NCBI GenBank assembly: GCA_033901515.1
Contig: GCA_033901515.1_4984.1
DNA length: 43,029 bases
Origin: Escherichia coli
GTDB taxonomy: Bacteria > Pseudomonadota > Gammaproteobacteria > Enterobacterales > Enterobacteriaceae
Direction: 5' to 3' (one strand)
The notes below the pieces were generated by a model. It saw only the letters and a program-made list of their open reading frames with translations. It did not search any database and was not told where the DNA came from. This document shows positions 1-43,029 of the stretch, piece by piece (the stretch's first letter is position 1; the number at the start of each line of letters is the position of its first letter). The position numbers were made by a program, and so were the translations under genes.

Positions 1-77
1 AGTTCCCTAAAACCCTCCTACTCCTGTAACATCATTTCTTAATAGCTTTCGAATGAAAGTAAAGGTGAAGGGATAGC
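1..77. repeat. Terminal direct repeat, left copy (identical to 42953..43029)
   Basis: Bases 1-77 (agttccctaaaaccctcctactcctgtaacat...aaaggtgaagggatagc) are repeated exactly at 42953-43029; the match stops at the window edges. Confidence 0.9.
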
Positions 78-296
78 CAAAGAGATAGCGCCGGATAGCG
101 CTGGATAGTGGGAGTGCGCCCTAGTGGGGAGCGCGCAGCGTAGCATAGAATCGGCACAATGTAAAGCACTAGCGATAGCACCACGGCGCACTAGGCGGCC
201 CGCTATGGCCCACACTATGGCCCCACAATGCTGGCACTGGAAGCCCGCAATAGGCGCACAAAATAAGCAAGACGGAGCGCGTCCCCACGGCCCACC

Positions 297-470: not shown

Positions 471-481
471 CCCCCCCCCCC
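471..481. repeat. Homopolymer C run of about 11 nt
   Basis: ggca-ccccccccccc-tcc at 467-484. Confidence 0.8.
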
Positions 482-602
482 TCCTTTATACGCTAGACAC
501 CCCCTATGGGGGCAATTGGGCGCGTTGAGGGTGAGGGAGGGCCTCGCGTGAGTTTAATAAATTTCAGGTCCAGGTATAGACGTGCACCCAGAGCCCCTAC
601 AG

Positions 603-4093: not shown

Positions 4094-4468
4094 TTATTCT
4101 TCCGCATCAGTAGCGACTACGAACGCACTTTGCAGTGCAGTGAATGATGTATCAAATGCCGTACCAGAGCCTTCACCTAGTGGCATACCTGTACCCGTAA
4201 GGGCAACGTAGCCAGTCTTCGAGAGCTGCGATAGCATGCTGAATAGGCGCGCCTGCAACGTCCCATCAGCCTTAAAGGCTGTGCCGGCGCGGGTGGCCGT
4301 ATAACCCTGGGATTGCATGTACGTAAAGAACGTATTCAGTGTGTCCAGAGCCGCAGTGCCGACAAAACCCACGTTGTAATCCGGAGATACTTGCTTTTCC
4401 AGATTCTGGGCCTTACCCACAATCTCATACTGTACATCTACAGCTTTAGCCGCGATGATTGATGCCAT
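4094..4468 (-). CDS. Hypothetical protein (124 aa)
   Basis: ATG overlaps the large terminase stop (TAATG); no recognisable motif. Confidence 0.5.
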   Translation of the reverse strand: MASIIAAKAVDVQYEIVGKAQNLEKQVSPDYNVGFVGTAALDTLNTFFTYMQSQGYTATRAGTAFKADGTLQARLFSMLSQLSKTGYVALTGTGMPLGEGSGTAFDTSFTALQSAFVVATDAEE

Positions 4469-6324
4469 TATCTTCTTCCTCTATGTTGTTTACCTCTGCC
4501 CCGGTTCTGCAACCGAGCCGCTACACCGCGAAGTCCCTTAGACAATTTGCTCTGTGCCCAATCTAGCGGGTTCTCAATGAAGGCCAGGGCCATCTTCTCG
4601 GACTCACGCTCAGCTACTACTTTCTCGTCTTCTACCAGGTGCCCATTCAGCACTGCCACCATCATAGCGATGGCGTCTGCCCGGTCATCCTTCGCTAGAC
4701 TTCCCCGGTCGTACGTAATACCTGCGAGCTGTGCGAACGCAGAGTATAACCATCGACGGTCTCGGGAGTAGAGCATACAAGTCCCGATATCATCTTGAAT
4801 AGCACGCTCATGCACCACCAGGCGATGTCGTCGAGTTACAGGGCTGATTGTGTCAATAATACGACGCTCTTTCTGCGTGGTGTTGTTGATATCGCGTACA
4901 CCGATACCGGCAAGGCGACGCTCCCTCAGGCGGTTCAGAATCAACATGGACACAGTACCGTGCCCCATGTTGCTCTCCACCACCATGTCAGAGATATCCA
5001 ACTCTACGCACAAATCAATGAGCTTATCAATATTCTCAGTGCTTACGCCTCCTTGGAAACCCCCAACGGAGAATAAGTGAATGTATGAGTTTGCAGCCCC
5101 ACCAGCAGCGTAGGACACTTCATCCCCACCACAACCCGCTGGGTCCACCACTAGCACCTTATGCTGATACGGTAGATGCATATCCCCATAGAATGCCGGA
5201 GAGTACATCTGCTGACCCATAATCCCCTCATGCTCGTGCTGGTACAAGTACCGACGGTCTGCGATGTAGGAGAAGGTCTCAGGTGAGGAATCTAGGCTAC
5301 CGGAGTACACAAGCATATCCGACAACTTGATACGGGTGCGCATCTGGTCAGACAAGGTTGTGTCGAGCATGTACTGCAGCTGGAAGCCCTCTGGGCCGAA
5401 GTCCAGCTCCTTCTCAATCAGCGCATCCTCGTCATAGCGACCGGTGTCTGTGCTCTCACCTAGTGTCCCGTCTACTCCGAACCCGGTACGTTTATAACCC
5501 CGCTCAATGAGCTGCAGTATATAAGGAGCAAGTGTACTTCCATATCGTTCTTCCATTTCAACTGACGGGATGCGCCCAGGCCACACTCGGACCTCGAAAC
5601 CACGCCCCGGCAGGGTTTTATAGATACTGTCCTTGGTCTGCGGTGTACCCAGGTACAGCGTATCCCCATGCGTACAGATAGCTGCGAAGTCTTTTGAAAT
5701 CATCAGCAACTGCTCACGCTGGGTTTGTGTCAAACCATTCTTAGTAGTCTCGATATCGTCTGGAATCAAGAGGTCAGCACGCTTACCTTGCAGGGATGCA
5801 GTGATACCGACACAGGCGACACTAGCAGACTTATCCAGCGGTTTCAGATCACAGTTGACATCATAACCTTCGAATGAAGTACGGTCCCCTCGAGTAGGGT
5901 CCGCCTTCAAGTAGCACAGTAGCGGCCAGGTTTCCAGCATACGAATGATTAAGTTCGCAACGTCGGACGCCTGTTTCTCCGCACCAGATACTATCAGTAT
6001 ACGGCAGGATTGGTCCTGGATGAGCCGCCAGACAGCATACAGCGCAGCCAGTGTAGACTTAGCTTCACCACGCTGTGCGGCTACCATGCGCTTCCTGGGA
6101 CCCTTCTGCATATACTCTGCGATATCGGCTTGCATGTCCGTCAGCGTAAAGCCCAAGAAGCGCATACCTATATATGCGAACTCCCTAAAATTGCTGAGGG
6201 TAGCCGCCATCATCATGGCGATATCCTCGCGCTCCTCTTTGGGAATACTGCGCGGATTCGCACTATAACCAGTAAGTTTCTGGTTGAGCATGCGCAGTCT
6301 TCGCGCAGTCTTCGCCGATACCAT
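4468..6324 (-). CDS. Terminase large subunit (DNA maturase B)
   Basis: 618 aa; deviant Walker A-like AAQRGEAKST; size and position after the small terminase match T7 gp19. Confidence 0.8.
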   Translation of the reverse strand: MVSAKTARRLRMLNQKLTGYSANPRSIPKEEREDIAMMMAATLSNFREFAYIGMRFLGFTLTDMQADIAEYMQKGPRKRMVAAQRGEAKSTLAALYAVWRLIQDQSCRILIVSGAEKQASDVANLIIRMLETWPLLCYLKADPTRGDRTSFEGYDVNCDLKPLDKSASVACVGITASLQGKRADLLIPDDIETTKNGLTQTQREQLLMISKDFAAICTHGDTLYLGTPQTKDSIYKTLPGRGFEVRVWPGRIPSVEMEERYGSTLAPYILQLIERGYKRTGFGVDGTLGESTDTGRYDEDALIEKELDFGPEGFQLQYMLDTTLSDQMRTRIKLSDMLVYSGSLDSSPETFSYIADRRYLYQHEHEGIMGQQMYSPAFYGDMHLPYQHKVLVVDPAGCGGDEVSYAAGGAANSYIHLFSVGGFQGGVSTENIDKLIDLCVELDISDMVVESNMGHGTVSMLILNRLRERRLAGIGVRDINNTTQKERRIIDTISPVTRRHRLVVHERAIQDDIGTCMLYSRDRRWLYSAFAQLAGITYDRGSLAKDDRADAIAMMVAVLNGHLVEDEKVVAERESEKMALAFIENPLDWAQSKLSKGLRGVAARLQNRGRGKQHRGRR

Positions 6325-6626
6325 TAGACAATTCCTTCTAGTAAGTCCTCAGAGTCTGAATCACTAATCTTGTTTAAAATCTCTTTCTTACGCGCCTCTC
6401 TGCGCGCCGCTAGTTCGTCATCAAATTCGTCGCGAAGGTCCTGCATCTCCTCGGAATCTGCATCCGCGGTGATATCATTATCCTTCAAGAACTTAGCAAT
6501 GACTGATTTATCTGCGGCGGGGAGCGGCACCTCGTCTTTTTTGGACTGCTTGATTTCTTCAATCAAGGCCTCAGTGAACATGCGGTGCAGCTCCGAGAGG
6601 CGACTGCGTTTAGCCGCCCCTGCCAT
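6324..6626 (-). CDS. Terminase small subunit (DNA maturase A)
   Basis: Tool ORF starts at TTG 6641. I prefer ATG 6624-6626 (RBS GGGGGA, overlaps tail-fiber stop as TAATG), giving about 100 aa with an acidic C-terminus. Position as T7 gp18. Confidence 0.6.
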   Translation of the reverse strand: MAGAAKRSRLSELHRMFTEALIEEIKQSKKDEVPLPAADKSVIAKFLKDNDITADADSEEMQDLRDEFDDELAARREARKKEILNKISDSDSEDLLEGIV

Positions 6627-8950: not shown

Positions 8951-11900
8951 CTCCGAAGTTATTGATGATAGCTCGCGTAGGTGCGAATTCCTGGATTAAC
9001 GGGACCTGTTTAGTGAAGGTCTGGATATCCATATCCCCAGTAGCCAGGGCTTGCACTGCACCCAGCAGACCAGTGACGTAACCCATAGATGCCAGAGAGT
9101 GGCGCGGTGAGTCCCCAGTGAAGATATCCTGCAGAAGCGAGATACCGCCAATGGCGCTCATACCCATAACTGACTCAGCGACAAGTTTCTGAGTATCGAC
9201 CTCTTTACCGTCCATACCGTGCTTAGCCATAGTTGCTAGAAGCATCAATGGGAACTGGTATGCCATGATGTGTGCAACCCCAATCCACCCAGCATCGTTC
9301 AGCTCTCGGCGCAGAATCTTGTTGGTGGCAGCCAGGGCGAAGCTCTGGTAGCCGACAATTACTTTGCCGATAGGGTTGAACTGGGCGAAGTGTGAGGTCT
9401 CACCGGTACGTACCTGCTGTACCAGGTAGTCCATCATACGCGTACCTACCACCTCAACTTGCATTTGCAGGTCCGGCTGGAACATAGCACCAGGGTTAGC
9501 CTTGTTGGCCGCGATAGCACGGTCCGCAACGTCGCGAGTAAGCCCGAAACGTTCCAGACGCTTAAACGCCTCAGCGTCCCCTTTGAACATCCGCTGGAGC
9601 TCGTCCGCTACAATACCTGAGTTAAGGTTAACCTGCAGTCGATGTACCATACTCATTCCGTTGATGTGACGCGCAGCCTGTCCAATGTTCTGGGTGACGT
9701 TAAACCATGAGGCTTGACGGGTCAGATCCAAGTTATCGTCTGCATAGGTATTCAACCAACGGAAGCGCATCTCCTTCTGAATACTACCACGTAGGATTGC
9801 ATCCAGACGACTAGCCATATCCGGAGTGCGAATAGCTACGGAACCTTCTTTAAACCAAGGCTGCTCACGCATACCACGCAGCACTCGGGACATACCAAAC
9901 TCTTTCAGCGCTAGGGCGATGTCAGTAAGCTGGTACAACCCGGAGTTCTTGAGCATGGTAGCGTTGGCCATGTTACCAGCTGCACGGAGCAGGTCCGGCA
10001 TTTGACCGGCATCGGCTGGTGCCCCACCTAAGATAAAGTCGATGGTGTCATTAACGGTCTTCTCCCACTTACCGGAATCAGCCAGAGCGTGCTTGGACTC
10101 ATTAATCATCGTCTCTAGTGTTTTTAGGTCAGAGACTCCGGCATAAGCCATACCTACACGACCTGACATTCGGTTAGTGTAACCGTGCATAACCTTAGCT
10201 ACATCAGTATCCATCAGATCCTGCATGCGCATAACCTGGCCATCTACGATGTACTCTTTGTCCATGTTGAAGCGGGTACGTTGACGGAGGTTCTTAGCAG
10301 GCGAGGTAGCACCGGATTCTCGGACATTACCTGCCAAGAAACTCTGGATTGCACTCTCGTCTACGCCAGCATTACGCATAACCATGACTACTTCGTCGTT
10401 ACCCATACCGTTGATGAGTTGCTTCCACATAGGACCAGAAGCCGAGGAGCGCCCGTTATAGATACCGTCAACCATCTCCTTAGCAACGCGCTGAACAACC
10501 TCAGGTTCCATAGACGGGTACACATCACGCAATGCCTGGCGGAATAAATCTCGGTAGTTATCCAGGGAGCGACCGTTCGCAATACCTTGGCGCATCTTAT
10601 CGTAGCTGTACTGGCGCGGGAAATAGTAGTCTGATTTAACCAGAGTACCGTCATCCACTAAACCGGCAGCGGTCATGTGATCATGCCACTTACTGGCCCA
10701 ACCAGAGTTGCGATACGCCTCAACAAGCGGAACTAAGTCAGAGTCCGGCAGAGGCACGGGGCGTCCGTTAACCTCAGCACTGTATGCAGAGTCCAGGTAA
10801 CGGCCTAAGCGGTCTTCCAAGTCAGCTCGTGCTGCTCTGAAGTTGCTACGATGGAAGAAGCGGTCCAGGAAACCTACACCCTTATCCTTGAGGGCACCGA
10901 GTATAGCGTCTTCAACTATACTAGCACTAGCATCCATTTCCAAGGTAAGGTTACGCTTAAAGTCCACCACAGACGGTTTACGACCGCCTACAGCAGTAGC
11001 ATCAGATACTAGTAAGCGTGCGAGGTCCTCACTACCCTCTGCGATGTTATCATACAAGGAGAACATAGTGGCGAGCTTACGCTTAGCAGTGTCCATCATA
11101 GCTTGGGCCTGCAAGGCCTCGTTCTTAACTGATGTACCTGCCAAGTCCTGGAAGGACTCACTCCTGAAGCTCTGAGCTTGGTCTGCGTAGTCCTTTGCGG
11201 TCCACTTGACAGCGTCCTCGTACGCGTCCAGAACATCCTCCAGAGCAGACCCCTTGGTGCGAACCCCTAGGGCGTTCATGATGTATTCACCAATCTGGCG
11301 AAGCATGCTTTTACCAGTAGGGGATTTAGTTCTAGAGAGGTACTCTACCCACTCAGGGCTGTCTCCCAGCCCGGCCAGCATTTCGTGCACATCACTTGCA
11401 TAATACTTGAATTTATCACTAAGAGTTGAATCTGCTGCTATTGCAGCGCGCACCTCTTCCAGCTTACTGGCAATTTCCGGATTCTGCTTAATAGCTCTGG
11501 TGGTGGCAGCGTGAATCAGTTCGTGCACTGCTACTCGGCTAGTGTCCGCATCCATAGCACGCAGAGCATCCCCGGCAGTAGTCCAGGTACTTCCGTTCGC
11601 TTTCTTAGGGGCACGTAAAGATACAAAACCCCTATCAGTTGTTGATGCTGGTGAAAACCCGTAGTGGCTACGGTTAGAAGAACCGGCCACCAGTTTAAAA
11701 TCAATGTCCTGTACTGCATCACCCAGGGTGTCCAGGATAGCCTTCTGACCTTTAGATAAGTGTTCAGAGGTCTTGAGGAAACGGACTACATCCTGCGCTT
11801 TCATGTTAACAGCGGCGGTGTTATTTCGGCGAACTTGGATAGGTTCATCCAGTACCTTAGTGAGGATTGTGTCTCCCTCTCCTACTCCTGTAACATTAGC

Positions 11901-23453: not shown

Positions 23454-23475
23454 TCCTACTCCTGTAACATTAAAT
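23454..23475 (-). promoter_or_regulatory. Conserved 17-bp motif also present in the terminal repeat; candidate phage promoter or end-related site
   Basis: Plus 23454-23470 tcctactcctgtaacat is identical to plus 16-32 and 42968-42984; minus strand reads ATGTTACAGGAGTAGGA immediately before the ATG at 23453. Confidence 0.4.
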
Positions 23476-28799: not shown

Positions 28800-29633
28800 T
28801 TAGGCTTGAGGTGCAGCGGGCGCTGCTGGCGCTACAGGAGCTACAGGGGCCGCTGGAGCCACTGGTGCAGCCGGGGCTGCCGGAGCTGCCGGAGCAGCAG
28901 GAGCAGCAGGGGCCGCTGGGGTCTGCATAGACTGAGGACTCGGAACCGAACCGGCATTCAGCATAATATCCAACGCACTGCCTGGGAAGTCAACAGCCTT
29001 GTACATGTCTTCCTGAATCCAGTTTTTACTCTTACCATCGTCCTTGGTACCTTCGATATATAAGCTATCCCAGGTTTCTTTGGTCGGATTGTTCCACAGG
29101 AACAGCTTAATCTCGGAGGCATCCAGAGCCGGCATCTTAATAGGCTCACCGGTGTTCGGGTCGAACTTCGGAATCGGACGGATTGCCGCGAGGTCTACAA
29201 TGTTAGACTTCTTAACTGCTGCGCTGGTGTGCTCATCTACTGGGAATACAAATGCTTGTCCCAGTCGCTGTGCAGCGTGTTTAATGCTGCCATCATAGTT
29301 GAGCTTGTCGAAGAATTTCTTGAAGCCCGCACGCTCAAAGTTGCTGATGGTCATCGGATACGGACGGATACGTTTCACCTCACCGTTAGGGCCATACACT
29401 ACAATCCCGATACGCACATTCGCTGCTGCAGGCTTACCAGTAGGCTTACCGCCCTTGGTCGGCAGGCGCTTACCAATTTCCACATACTCGGTGAAGTAGC
29501 CATAGTACTCACCCTTCGGCAGCAGTACATCCTCGTACGCACCGCCCTGGGCGGTCTCGGTCATATCAACTTCTTGTGTTTTAATCGCAGCAGCAACCAG
29601 GGAGTTCAGAGTGTCCAGTGCATTCATAGTCAT
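28800..29633 (-). CDS. Hypothetical protein with Pro/Ala-repeat C-terminal tail
   Basis: 277 aa; C-terminal about 45 aa is PAAPAAPAAPAAPAAPVAPAAPVAPVAPAAPAAPQA, encoded by imperfect 9-bp tandem repeats at about 28803-28920. Confidence 0.6.
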   Translation of the reverse strand: MTMNALDTLNSLVAAAIKTQEVDMTETAQGGAYEDVLLPKGEYYGYFTEYVEIGKRLPTKGGKPTGKPAAANVRIGIVVYGPNGEVKRIRPYPMTISNFERAGFKKFFDKLNYDGSIKHAAQRLGQAFVFPVDEHTSAAVKKSNIVDLAAIRPIPKFDPNTGEPIKMPALDASEIKLFLWNNPTKETWDSLYIEGTKDDGKSKNWIQEDMYKAVDFPGSALDIMLNAGSVPSPQSMQTPAAPAAPAAPAAPAAPAAPVAPAAPVAPVAPAAPAAPQA

Positions 29634-30667: not shown

Positions 30668-31096
30668 TTAGGCCTCCTTAATAATTTGACTGACGCGAGA
30701 TTGTACTACACCGTATTTCGCAGCAAGCACGTACTGATTAGCGTGTTTAGAACGAGGAACATACTCCCGGCGAATCTGCTCTACAGTAGACTTGGAAATC
30801 TTATGAGCTTCTCGGCCCCTATCTACCTTATCTTGCATGTTGTCTGCCCTGCTGCCCACCAGAAGATGCTCGGGATTAATACAACGGGGATTGTCACATG
30901 AGTGTCTAATCACCTGCCCGTCTATATCCGCATAGGTTATACCGTGGTGGCGGACGTAAACCACTCGATGATATAGGCGCATCTTTCCGTCACGTTTAAC
31001 TAACGCATACCCTCCTTTTAGAAGGCTCCGGCTTTTGCCGTGGTCTATACATTCTGACACTGCATGCCTCTCTTGTGTTGTTCCTACTCGTATCAC
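30668..31096 (-). CDS. HNH endonuclease (free-standing, homing-type)
   Basis: GGYALVKRDGKMRLYHRVVYVRHHG ... VIRHSCDNPRCINPEHLLVGSRADN is an HNH_3-like pattern, with a C-terminal HTH-like segment. Start uncertain: GTG 31096 or GTG 31060 (RBS GAGAGG). Confidence 0.75.
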   Translation of the reverse strand: MIRVGTTQERHAVSECIDHGKSRSLLKGGYALVKRDGKMRLYHRVVYVRHHGITYADIDGQVIRHSCDNPRCINPEHLLVGSRADNMQDKVDRGREAHKISKSTVEQIRREYVPRSKHANQYVLAAKYGVVQSRVSQIIKEA

Positions 31097-31223
31097 ATTA
31101 ATTCTCGGTAAATCACGGAATCAAGCCAGAGTCAACAAATAATTTTATTTAATTATCTACTTGACCCTGGTTAATTCTCATGTTACCCTAACCCCCCTAC
31201 ACCACCCAAGGGTCCACCTATCA

Positions 31224-41172: not shown

Positions 41173-41748
41173 TCATGCCGCTACCTTCAAAGTTGCATCC
41201 AGCACAGCGCGTACATCCACGCCCTGACTGATAAGCATAGATACCAAATCAGAGTCGCTCACCCCAGTTTCTTTAGCCTTCTTGATAGCGTTTTTAACGC
41301 GCCCCAGCGCTTGCAGGCGCACTGCATCGGCATCAAGGGCATCATTCTTCACTTGTTCCGCTTCAGCAGCGTACAGGGCCATACAAGCGCTGTAGAAGCT
41401 GGCAACAATCTCTTCCCGGCCTTGCTTGTCAGCTTGTTTATAATCCAGACGCACGGCGTCCAGTTCAATGCCCAGCTTTTCAGCCGATGCATAGCACTTT
41501 TTAGCGTGGAATGCGTACTTGCCGGATTCCTTGTTGAACTTGATAGGCAGCAGTGTACGCAGCACCATATCGAAATCAGCGGCATCACTGCGCTGCATAT
41601 CCGTCGCCCAAGAAACGTTGCTACTAATCAGGCCGTGGAACAGAGCGCTGATAGTAATATTGCGTTTTGCTTCCACCACGTCGCCCAGCGCCTTGCGAAT
41701 GCTGCCAGCAGCGGTTAATTTGAATACTTTACCAGTTGAACGAGTCAT
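41173..41748 (-). CDS. Hypothetical early protein (191 aa)
   Basis: ATG 41746-41748, RBS AAGAGGTG; no recognisable motif. Confidence 0.55.
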   Translation of the reverse strand: MTRSTGKVFKLTAAGSIRKALGDVVEAKRNITISALFHGLISSNVSWATDMQRSDAADFDMVLRTLLPIKFNKESGKYAFHAKKCYASAEKLGIELDAVRLDYKQADKQGREEIVASFYSACMALYAAEAEQVKNDALDADAVRLQALGRVKNAIKKAKETGVSDSDLVSMLISQGVDVRAVLDATLKVAA

Positions 41749-41804
41749 GATGCACCTCTTTGATTGGTTGTTTACTTAATGATTTACTTAAAAACGAATT
41801 ACTT

Positions 41805-41836
41805 CACATAGCACCCCCCATAGGATGCTATAGGCT
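41805..41836 (-). promoter_or_regulatory. Conserved hairpin element B
   Basis: Plus cacatagcaccccccataggatgctataggctg; minus-strand RNA CCUAUAGCA-UCCUAUGGGGGG-UGCUAUGUG; followed towards the gene by a direct repeat TAAGTAAA x2. Confidence 0.45.
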
Positions 41837-41840
41837 GTAA

Positions 41841-42056
41841 TTAGCGTCCGAACTGCCCAGCAGTATACCAGCCTTGTGGCGCTCTGCTACTACCTTTTGT
41901 TTTGGTTTTACCGCGTACATTCGTGCTGAATGTAGCGGATTGCTTCATCCGCATATACCCAGCACGATTCAGCGCATCCCGGCGTTTTCTCAATTCAGGA
42001 CCGGATAACTTCTCCAGCCCAGCAAATTGTTGCGCTAACTTCTCACGATATTTCAT
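41841..42056 (-). CDS. First early gene, small basic protein (about 71 aa)
   Basis: I prefer ATG 42054-42056 with strong RBS GAGGAGG (the tool start is TTG 42071, inside the RBS); Arg/Lys-rich. Confidence 0.45.
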   Translation of the reverse strand: MKYREKLAQQFAGLEKLSGPELRKRRDALNRAGYMRMKQSATFSTNVRGKTKTKGSSRAPQGWYTAGQFGR

Positions 42057-42324
42057 TGCGTACCTCCTCAAAGTTAATGGTTAACGCCCTAACAGAATCC
42101 AGTAGGACGCTAACTTTTAACCTTGTTACCCACTGCACAACCGTGGAACCTGTGGTTCAGGTCTCGGCGCTATTCTTTTAAGGGGCAGCGCCTCAGCGCC
42201 CCAGCCGTTTGTCATCTCGGCCCTTGATGTTACTTCTTTACTGCACTGATTATCTAGGATTGGTCGTCATCGTACCAGTCAAGGTACTGGGCCTCCCCGC
42301 AAACCAGCTTACTACTTTGTTCGC

Positions 42325-42360
42325 TATCTAAGTTACTAGGTGAATCAGAACTTGTCAAGC
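42325..42360 (-). promoter_or_regulatory. Candidate sigma70-type early promoter
   Basis: Minus strand TTGACA (plus 42353-42358), 17-nt spacer, TAACTT (plus 42330-42335). Confidence 0.25.
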
Positions 42361-42474
42361 GTTACTTCTTACTTTTAAGCCGTCCGGTTTGCGTGTCCGG
42401 TCACCTGTAGCGGCTTGCTACGTGGAAGTGTCCTATTTAACGGCCTGTCTTCAACTATCCTGCCGTACTGCTGG

Positions 42475-42510
42475 GATTCAATCTAACTTATGTTCTTCGC
42501 GGTGTCAACT
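42475..42510 (-). promoter_or_regulatory. Candidate sigma70-type early promoter
   Basis: Minus strand TTGACA (plus 42503-42508), 17-nt spacer, TAGATT (plus 42480-42485). Confidence 0.25.
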
Positions 42511-42724
42511 CTTTTTATTGAGTATCTAACCCTTCACACTATTTAGCTTTAATCCGGCGGAGTCTCCCGACTCTACCCCGTTCAGCACCTCAGCGCCTCC
42601 CGGTGATTGAACTATAACGCCAACAAACCAAAAGAAGCAAGTAATTTTTTAATGCTTTTTGCAATTATTTATCTCTAAGAGCAAAAAGAGTAAGCAGGGC
42701 AAATACTTAGACCATGCTTCTATT

Positions 42725-42787
42725 CTAGGGATAGCACTAGGGATAGCGCTATACAGCCAATGCTAACCAATACTAGCCAATGCTAAC
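42725..42787. repeat. Short direct repeats near the genome end (tagggatagc x2; agccaatgctaac x2)
   Basis: Direct reading of 42721-42790; GATAGC-type words also recur at 71-112 and 172-178. Confidence 0.7.
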
Positions 42788-42904
42788 TAATACCATCTAG
42801 CACTGCATAGAGCAGCACGCAGTGACGTAACGTAAGTGAAGTCACGGAGTGATGCGGTGACTATGTAGGTAATGCTTACTCCCTACGGTCGTAACATAGG
42901 GCAT

Positions 42905-42934
42905 TACTAGTGAATACTAGTGAATACTAGTGAA
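42905..42934. repeat. Tandem 10-bp repeat (tactagtgaa x3) abutting the terminal repeat
   Basis: Direct reading of 42905-42934, followed by degenerate tagtagtaagtagtatgt. Confidence 0.85.
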
Positions 42935-42952
42935 TAGTAGTAAGTAGTATGT

Positions 42953-43029
42953 AGTTCCCTAAAACCCTCCTACTCCTGTAACATCATTTCTTAATAGCTT
43001 TCGAATGAAAGTAAAGGTGAAGGGATAGC
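42953..43029. repeat. Terminal direct repeat, right copy
   Basis: Exact 77-bp copy of 1..77. Confidence 0.9.

Follow-up and report, generated by a model that had tools for sequence, protein, structure and literature searches.

The window, the whole stretch of 43,029 nt that was analysed, is a Drulisvirus (KP34-like; Autographiviridae, Slopekvirinae). Every long ORF lies on the minus strand, so the window reads as the reverse complement of how these genomes are conventionally shown. A megablast search against GenBank phages matched 265 records, most of them from Drulisvirus phages of Klebsiella and Escherichia, and the nearest relatives (Escherichia phages AV102, Minorna, EC22.5-2 and ZH5; Klebsiella phages Hope and KPV811) have ~91% identity. 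The Logan contig SRR23882985_18567 is 95.5% identical across the last 12 kb. Look-ups with the capsid and endolysin gave relatives of 89% and 95.5% identity only, and exact-protein look-ups with the 191-aa early protein and the 669-aa tailspike gave no match. The terminase large subunit (TerL; 4468-6324, minus strand) is 97% identical to gp51 of fHe-Kpn01 over 618 aa, and the small subunit (TerS, DNA maturase A; 6324-6626, minus strand) is 96% identical to gp50 of the same phage. A 277-aa protein (gene 28800-29633, minus strand) has a C-terminal (PAA/PVA)n tripeptide repeat, which is encoded by a 9-nt tandem array at 28800-28920 on the minus strand.

The two ends of the window carry the same 77 bp. 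Positions 1-77 match 42953-43029 with 100% identity when prefix and suffix are compared directly, as the initial annotation had reported, and prefix and suffix of the window agree at no other length. There is no third copy: words of 12, 15, 20 and 30 nt from the start of the repeat turn up at 1 and 42953 and nowhere else in the window. The chance probability of a match this long is about 10^-46, so the identity is not coincidental. Because the repeat reaches both ends of the window, its length is fixed by where the contig stops and is not extendable from the sequence alone. Neither copy is assigned a strand. The second adjoins an array of short tandem repeats (42905-42955), and dropping one of them leaves a non-redundant unit of 42,952 bp. 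An exact scan of IMG/VR for the 40-mer that begins the repeat found no match.

The 77-mer lies in a non-coding stretch of ~1.5 kb whose neighbours, both on the minus strand, are the last late gene (650-2659) and the first early ORF (~42071). It contains a strong promoter for the KP34-type phage RNA polymerase, TGATGTTACAGGAGTA, at 19-34 on the minus strand (duplicated at 42971-42986). This site is identical to the S2 "strong promoter" of KP34 (KP34 nt 475-490), which was defined by in-vitro transcription (PMC6834552), and its offset from the predicted left end discussed below is 503 nt in the window versus 475 nt in KP34. There are four KP34-type promoter sites in all, each on the minus strand: 19-34 (the same as 42971-42986), 11883-11898, 23457-23472 and 31085-31100. 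One is the S2 type (TGATGTTACAGGAGTA), two are exact S1 sites (TAATGTTACAGGAGTA) and one is degenerate (TAATGTGATACGAGTA); none is expected by chance (0 in 100 shuffles). Of the two S1 sites, one sits a short way downstream of the RNA polymerase gene, the other within the gene for the 1232-aa internal virion protein. Their re-oriented coordinates, 20017 and 31591, compare with 22197 and 33721 in KP34, in a similar genome order.

Relatives carry the 77-mer as internal, single-copy DNA. A junction query, made of window 41700-42952 joined to 1-700 with the 77-mer kept once, aligns with internal DNA of dozens of relatives, often as one BLAST piece. In AV102 a single HSP runs through both edges of the 77-mer, which is present in one copy. 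The 95.5%-identical Logan contig, built with a different assembler at k = 31, also has one copy; it extends from the tailspike gene across the 77-mer and on into the homologue of window 42925-42952. The AV102 record itself (GenBank OR352933) has an exact prefix/suffix overlap of 16 nt.

The physical ends of Drulisvirus genomes are found elsewhere. Eleven records of the genus, fHe-Kpn01 and KP34 among them, share a conserved start, (C)CCTCACCC...CCCCCATAGGGGG, with the common pattern (C)CCTCACCCT.A.CG....AATTGCCCCCATAGGGGGTG. Nine GenBank records (KpV74, SAA231, AttikonH5, cmc20192, Pokalde_001, AttikonH1, AttikonH1N2, JKT6 and FK1979) have one of their ends at coordinate 1787-1790 of the junction query, which corresponds to window 534-537. 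The termini of fHe-Kpn01 were mapped by restriction analysis, ligation with Sanger sequencing, and PhageTerm, and consist of blunt ends with a 222-bp repeat (PMC7291057). The minus strand of the window from 536 reads CCTCACCCTCAACGCGCCCAATTGCCCCCATAGGGGGTG, with the conserved start intact. The predicted left physical terminus, CCTCAC..., is thus at 531-536 on the minus strand; the same sequence starts the 11 Drulisvirus records and also isolate contigs in IMG/VR. These isolate-derived contigs of ~41-45 kb start 1-2 nt before CTCAC, whereas in metagenomic contigs of like size the CTCAC motif is internal, at no fixed place. A conserved terminal inverted repeat, CCCCCATAGGGGG (500-512, minus strand), lies ~25 nt in from the left end and is invariant in both alignments.

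The right boundary of the repeat is equally conserved. Annotated repeats measure 215 bp in AttikonH5, 216 in KP34, 222 in fHe-Kpn01, 247 in Pokalde_001, 267/268 in SAA231 and 311 in JKT6, and these length differences arise from internal indels. All six share the boundary GCGCTC|YGYCTT..TATTTTG, in fuller form ...GCGCTC(TG)|CCTTGCTTATTTTG. The window version, GACGCGCTC|CGTCTTGCTTATTTTG, is intact at 273-276, and is placed at 275 by the boundary of fHe-Kpn01 and KP34; boundaries in deposited records differ by 1-3 nt. From the alignments, and with both boundaries matching the six annotated records, the true direct terminal repeat of this phage is predicted to run on the minus strand from 536 down to 275 (each boundary +/-3 nt), ~262 bp, collapsed into one copy. 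It has both boundaries, a length within the range of the genus and the same terminase; TerL and TerS are so close to those of fHe-Kpn01 that the same cut sites are expected. No second, diverged copy of 275-536 exists within the window, and the single copy fits the collapse of two copies by assembly. The KP34 and fHe-Kpn01 repeats have a homologous region in the window, with the two conserved boundaries at 536 and 275, and the terminase genes are near-identical. Unlike them, the window holds one collapsed copy, ~262 bp long through internal indels. With such a repeat at both ends, the packaged DNA is predicted to be ~43,214 bp long. The initial annotation had supposed that a true repeat of a few hundred bp was collapsed in the non-coding region spanning the junction. 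Its size, its collapse and its place in the non-coding region agree with the prediction at 275-536 and its conserved boundaries, but it does not span the junction, being 198 bp off the 77-mer.

The predicted repeat contains a G11 homopolymer (471-481, minus strand; a C-run on the plus strand). A weak hairpin with a T-run lies at its right boundary (269-288, minus strand), and the homologue of this site is annotated as a "concatemer junction" in Pokalde_001. Apart from this hairpin, scans of the non-coding region for sigma-70 and terminator patterns gave no excess over shuffled controls and are given no weight as evidence. Short tandem arrays with units of 7-20 nt crowd the non-coding terminal region, both inside and flanking the predicted repeat (84-108, 295-325, 424-466, 622-646, 42725-42793 and 42905-42955).

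Two sets of annotations were set aside. In NKA196 (OR287808) the annotated 167-bp "LTR" extends from 86 nt upstream of the CCTCAC terminus to a point slightly beyond the G-run. It was dropped as an outlier that conflicts with the six annotated repeats and with further records starting at CCTCAC. The NKA196 annotation may be off the physical ends, and the disagreement means that annotations in the genus are not perfectly uniform. The "direct repeat" annotations of KP-Rio/2015 mark short repeats inside the genome rather than termini, and were left out.

The 77-mer resembles none of these ends. Its coding strand begins GCTATCCCTTCACC and not (C)CCTCACCC...CCCCCATAGGGGG, the boundary GCGCTC|YGYCTT..TATTTTG is at 275 and at neither of its edges, and 77 bp is outside the 215-311 bp of the repeats that share both boundaries. 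It is an ordinary internal regulatory sequence, 198 bp past the right edge of the predicted repeat. It does look like an assembler overlap: the prefix/suffix identity is exact, end to end and reaches the contig tips, the length equals a k of common assemblers, and with one copy removed the sequence is colinear with internal single-copy DNA of relatives.

SPAdes with 150-nt reads has a largest k of 77. Identical contig ends of 77 bp produced by SPAdes have been described in phage work (PMC9409062), repeats of 127 bp have been reported as artefactual (PMC9331655), and the direct terminal repeats of Autographiviridae are reported to be lost in short-read assemblies (PMC10438801). The most telling evidence is that two near relatives of the window show the same kind of overlap at other positions. 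EC22.5-2 (OR845139), deposited under the SPAdes-style name "NODE_2_length_42480_cov_16.6", has an exact 77-bp prefix/suffix overlap at the window equivalent of 547-471, and ZH5 (OM864357) has an exact 127-bp overlap at the equivalent of 480-352. By contrast, the overlaps of SAA231 and fHe-Kpn01, 268 and 222 bp, correspond to their annotated repeats. The public genomes of EC22.5-2 and ZH5 look as if they carry untrimmed assembler overlaps. Like that of the window, these overlaps are exact, of a standard k length, single-copy in relatives and placed without relation to the physical termini. The break points differ: each of the two overlaps starts or ends at the G-run of the true repeat, while the window is cut in the S2 promoter region, next to tandem arrays of 7-10-nt units. 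The initial annotation had proposed that the repeat marks a contig closure, and that 77 is a common largest k which leaves a k-bp overlap on closure. This reading is supported by the single internal copy in relatives, the conserved termini at 536 and 275, the overlaps of EC22.5-2 and ZH5, and the published reports of 77-bp and 127-bp overlaps.

The break points adjoin error-prone, low-complexity DNA in all three genomes, a G12-13 run in EC22.5-2 and ZH5 versus the 7-10-nt arrays at 42905-42955 in the window. The Logan contig also ends within this array. We infer that graph branching sets where an assembly cycle is cut.

The 77-bp end duplication is best explained, with a probability of about 95%, as an overlap left by a de Bruijn-graph assembler, most likely SPAdes with a largest k of 77, and not as terminal redundancy of the virion. 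Short reads from virions with a direct repeat of ~262 bp would merge both repeat copies into one, so that the genome would close into a cycle in the graph. Printed linearly from an arbitrary node, this cycle would have its last k = 77 bases repeat the first 77, and the first copy would be an artefactual duplicate of single-copy sequence. The break in the cycle presumably fell beside the short tandem arrays, in the region with the early S2 promoter. The phage itself would be a KP34-like podophage that packages its DNA in the T7 manner. By analogy with T7 and fHe-Kpn01, the T7-type terminase would cut concatemers so that virion DNA starts with CCTCAC and has the repeat at both ends; in this phage the start would be at CCTCACCC (window 536, minus strand).

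The overlap might also come from a source other than SPAdes at k = 77, such as another assembler or pipeline or manual circularisation, and it would still be an artefact. The assembler is not readable from the sequence, and AV102, for example, has an odd 16-nt overlap. This origin is unlikely, though, given that 77 is the top SPAdes k, is reported in phage work and is seen in the SPAdes-named EC22.5-2.

A genuine direct terminal repeat of 77 bp would imply that the cut sites moved ~460 bp rightward, so that the S2 region became terminally redundant. In such a lineage with shifted cuts, the ancestral terminal sequences would have been kept as internal relics and the 77-bp S2 segment would be the redundant one, which is just as hard to credit. 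In its favour, short direct terminal repeats occur in Autographiviridae, and an exact prefix/suffix match is also expected of a correctly finished record. However, the conserved terminal motifs are absent at the edges of the 77-mer and intact at 536 and 275; 77 bp, a standard SPAdes k, falls far short of the annotations of the genus (167-311 bp); both terminase subunits match those of a phage with mapped canonical ends at 96-97% identity; and relatives carry the 77-mer once, internally. A real repeat of this length is therefore highly improbable.

A genome without fixed ends, either circularly permuted by headful packaging or a circular replicon, would make the overlap the sign of a true circle with no collapsed repeat, and permuted genomes do also yield a circular path with a k-sized overlap (PMC9409062), but the T7-type terminase, 97% identical to that of fHe-Kpn01 with its blunt fixed ends and 222-bp repeat, and the presence of intact conserved terminal sequences make this very improbable.

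As an assembly by-product, the 77-bp repeat is no feature of the biology of the phage and reveals nothing new about it. Curation of the record calls for trimming one copy to give the 42,952-bp unit, taking the reverse complement with window 536 as the new start and, after confirmation by reads, appending the ~262-bp repeat to the right end. CheckV-type tools label any prefix/suffix match "complete with DTR", and k-sized overlaps such as those of the window, EC22.5-2 and ZH5 can therefore pass as real terminal repeats. Taken as such, they would distort statistics on packaging strategy.

The predicted ends also resemble those of T7 in several ways. T7 starts with TCTCAC and the window with CCTCAC, so that both have YCTCAC at nt 1-6, and the identical 13-mer CCCCCATAGGGGG occupies nt 26-38 in T7 and nt 25-37 in the window. 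Further shared features are short repeat arrays on the flanks of the terminal repeat (160 bp in T7), a phage promoter a few hundred nt in from the left end and, at the right boundary of the repeat, a T-rich element. The hairpin and T-run at 269-288 may, speculatively, act like the T7 concatemer-junction signal. Otherwise the two repeats are unrelated in sequence, that of the window is longer, and its boundary lacks ATCTGTT, the class II pause signal of T7. The combination of YCTCAC and CCCCCATAGGGGG suggests a packaging or end-processing signal that is conserved across subfamilies. Separately, 63 stretches in IMG/VR have the left-end pattern of YCTCAC with CCCCCATAGGGGG.
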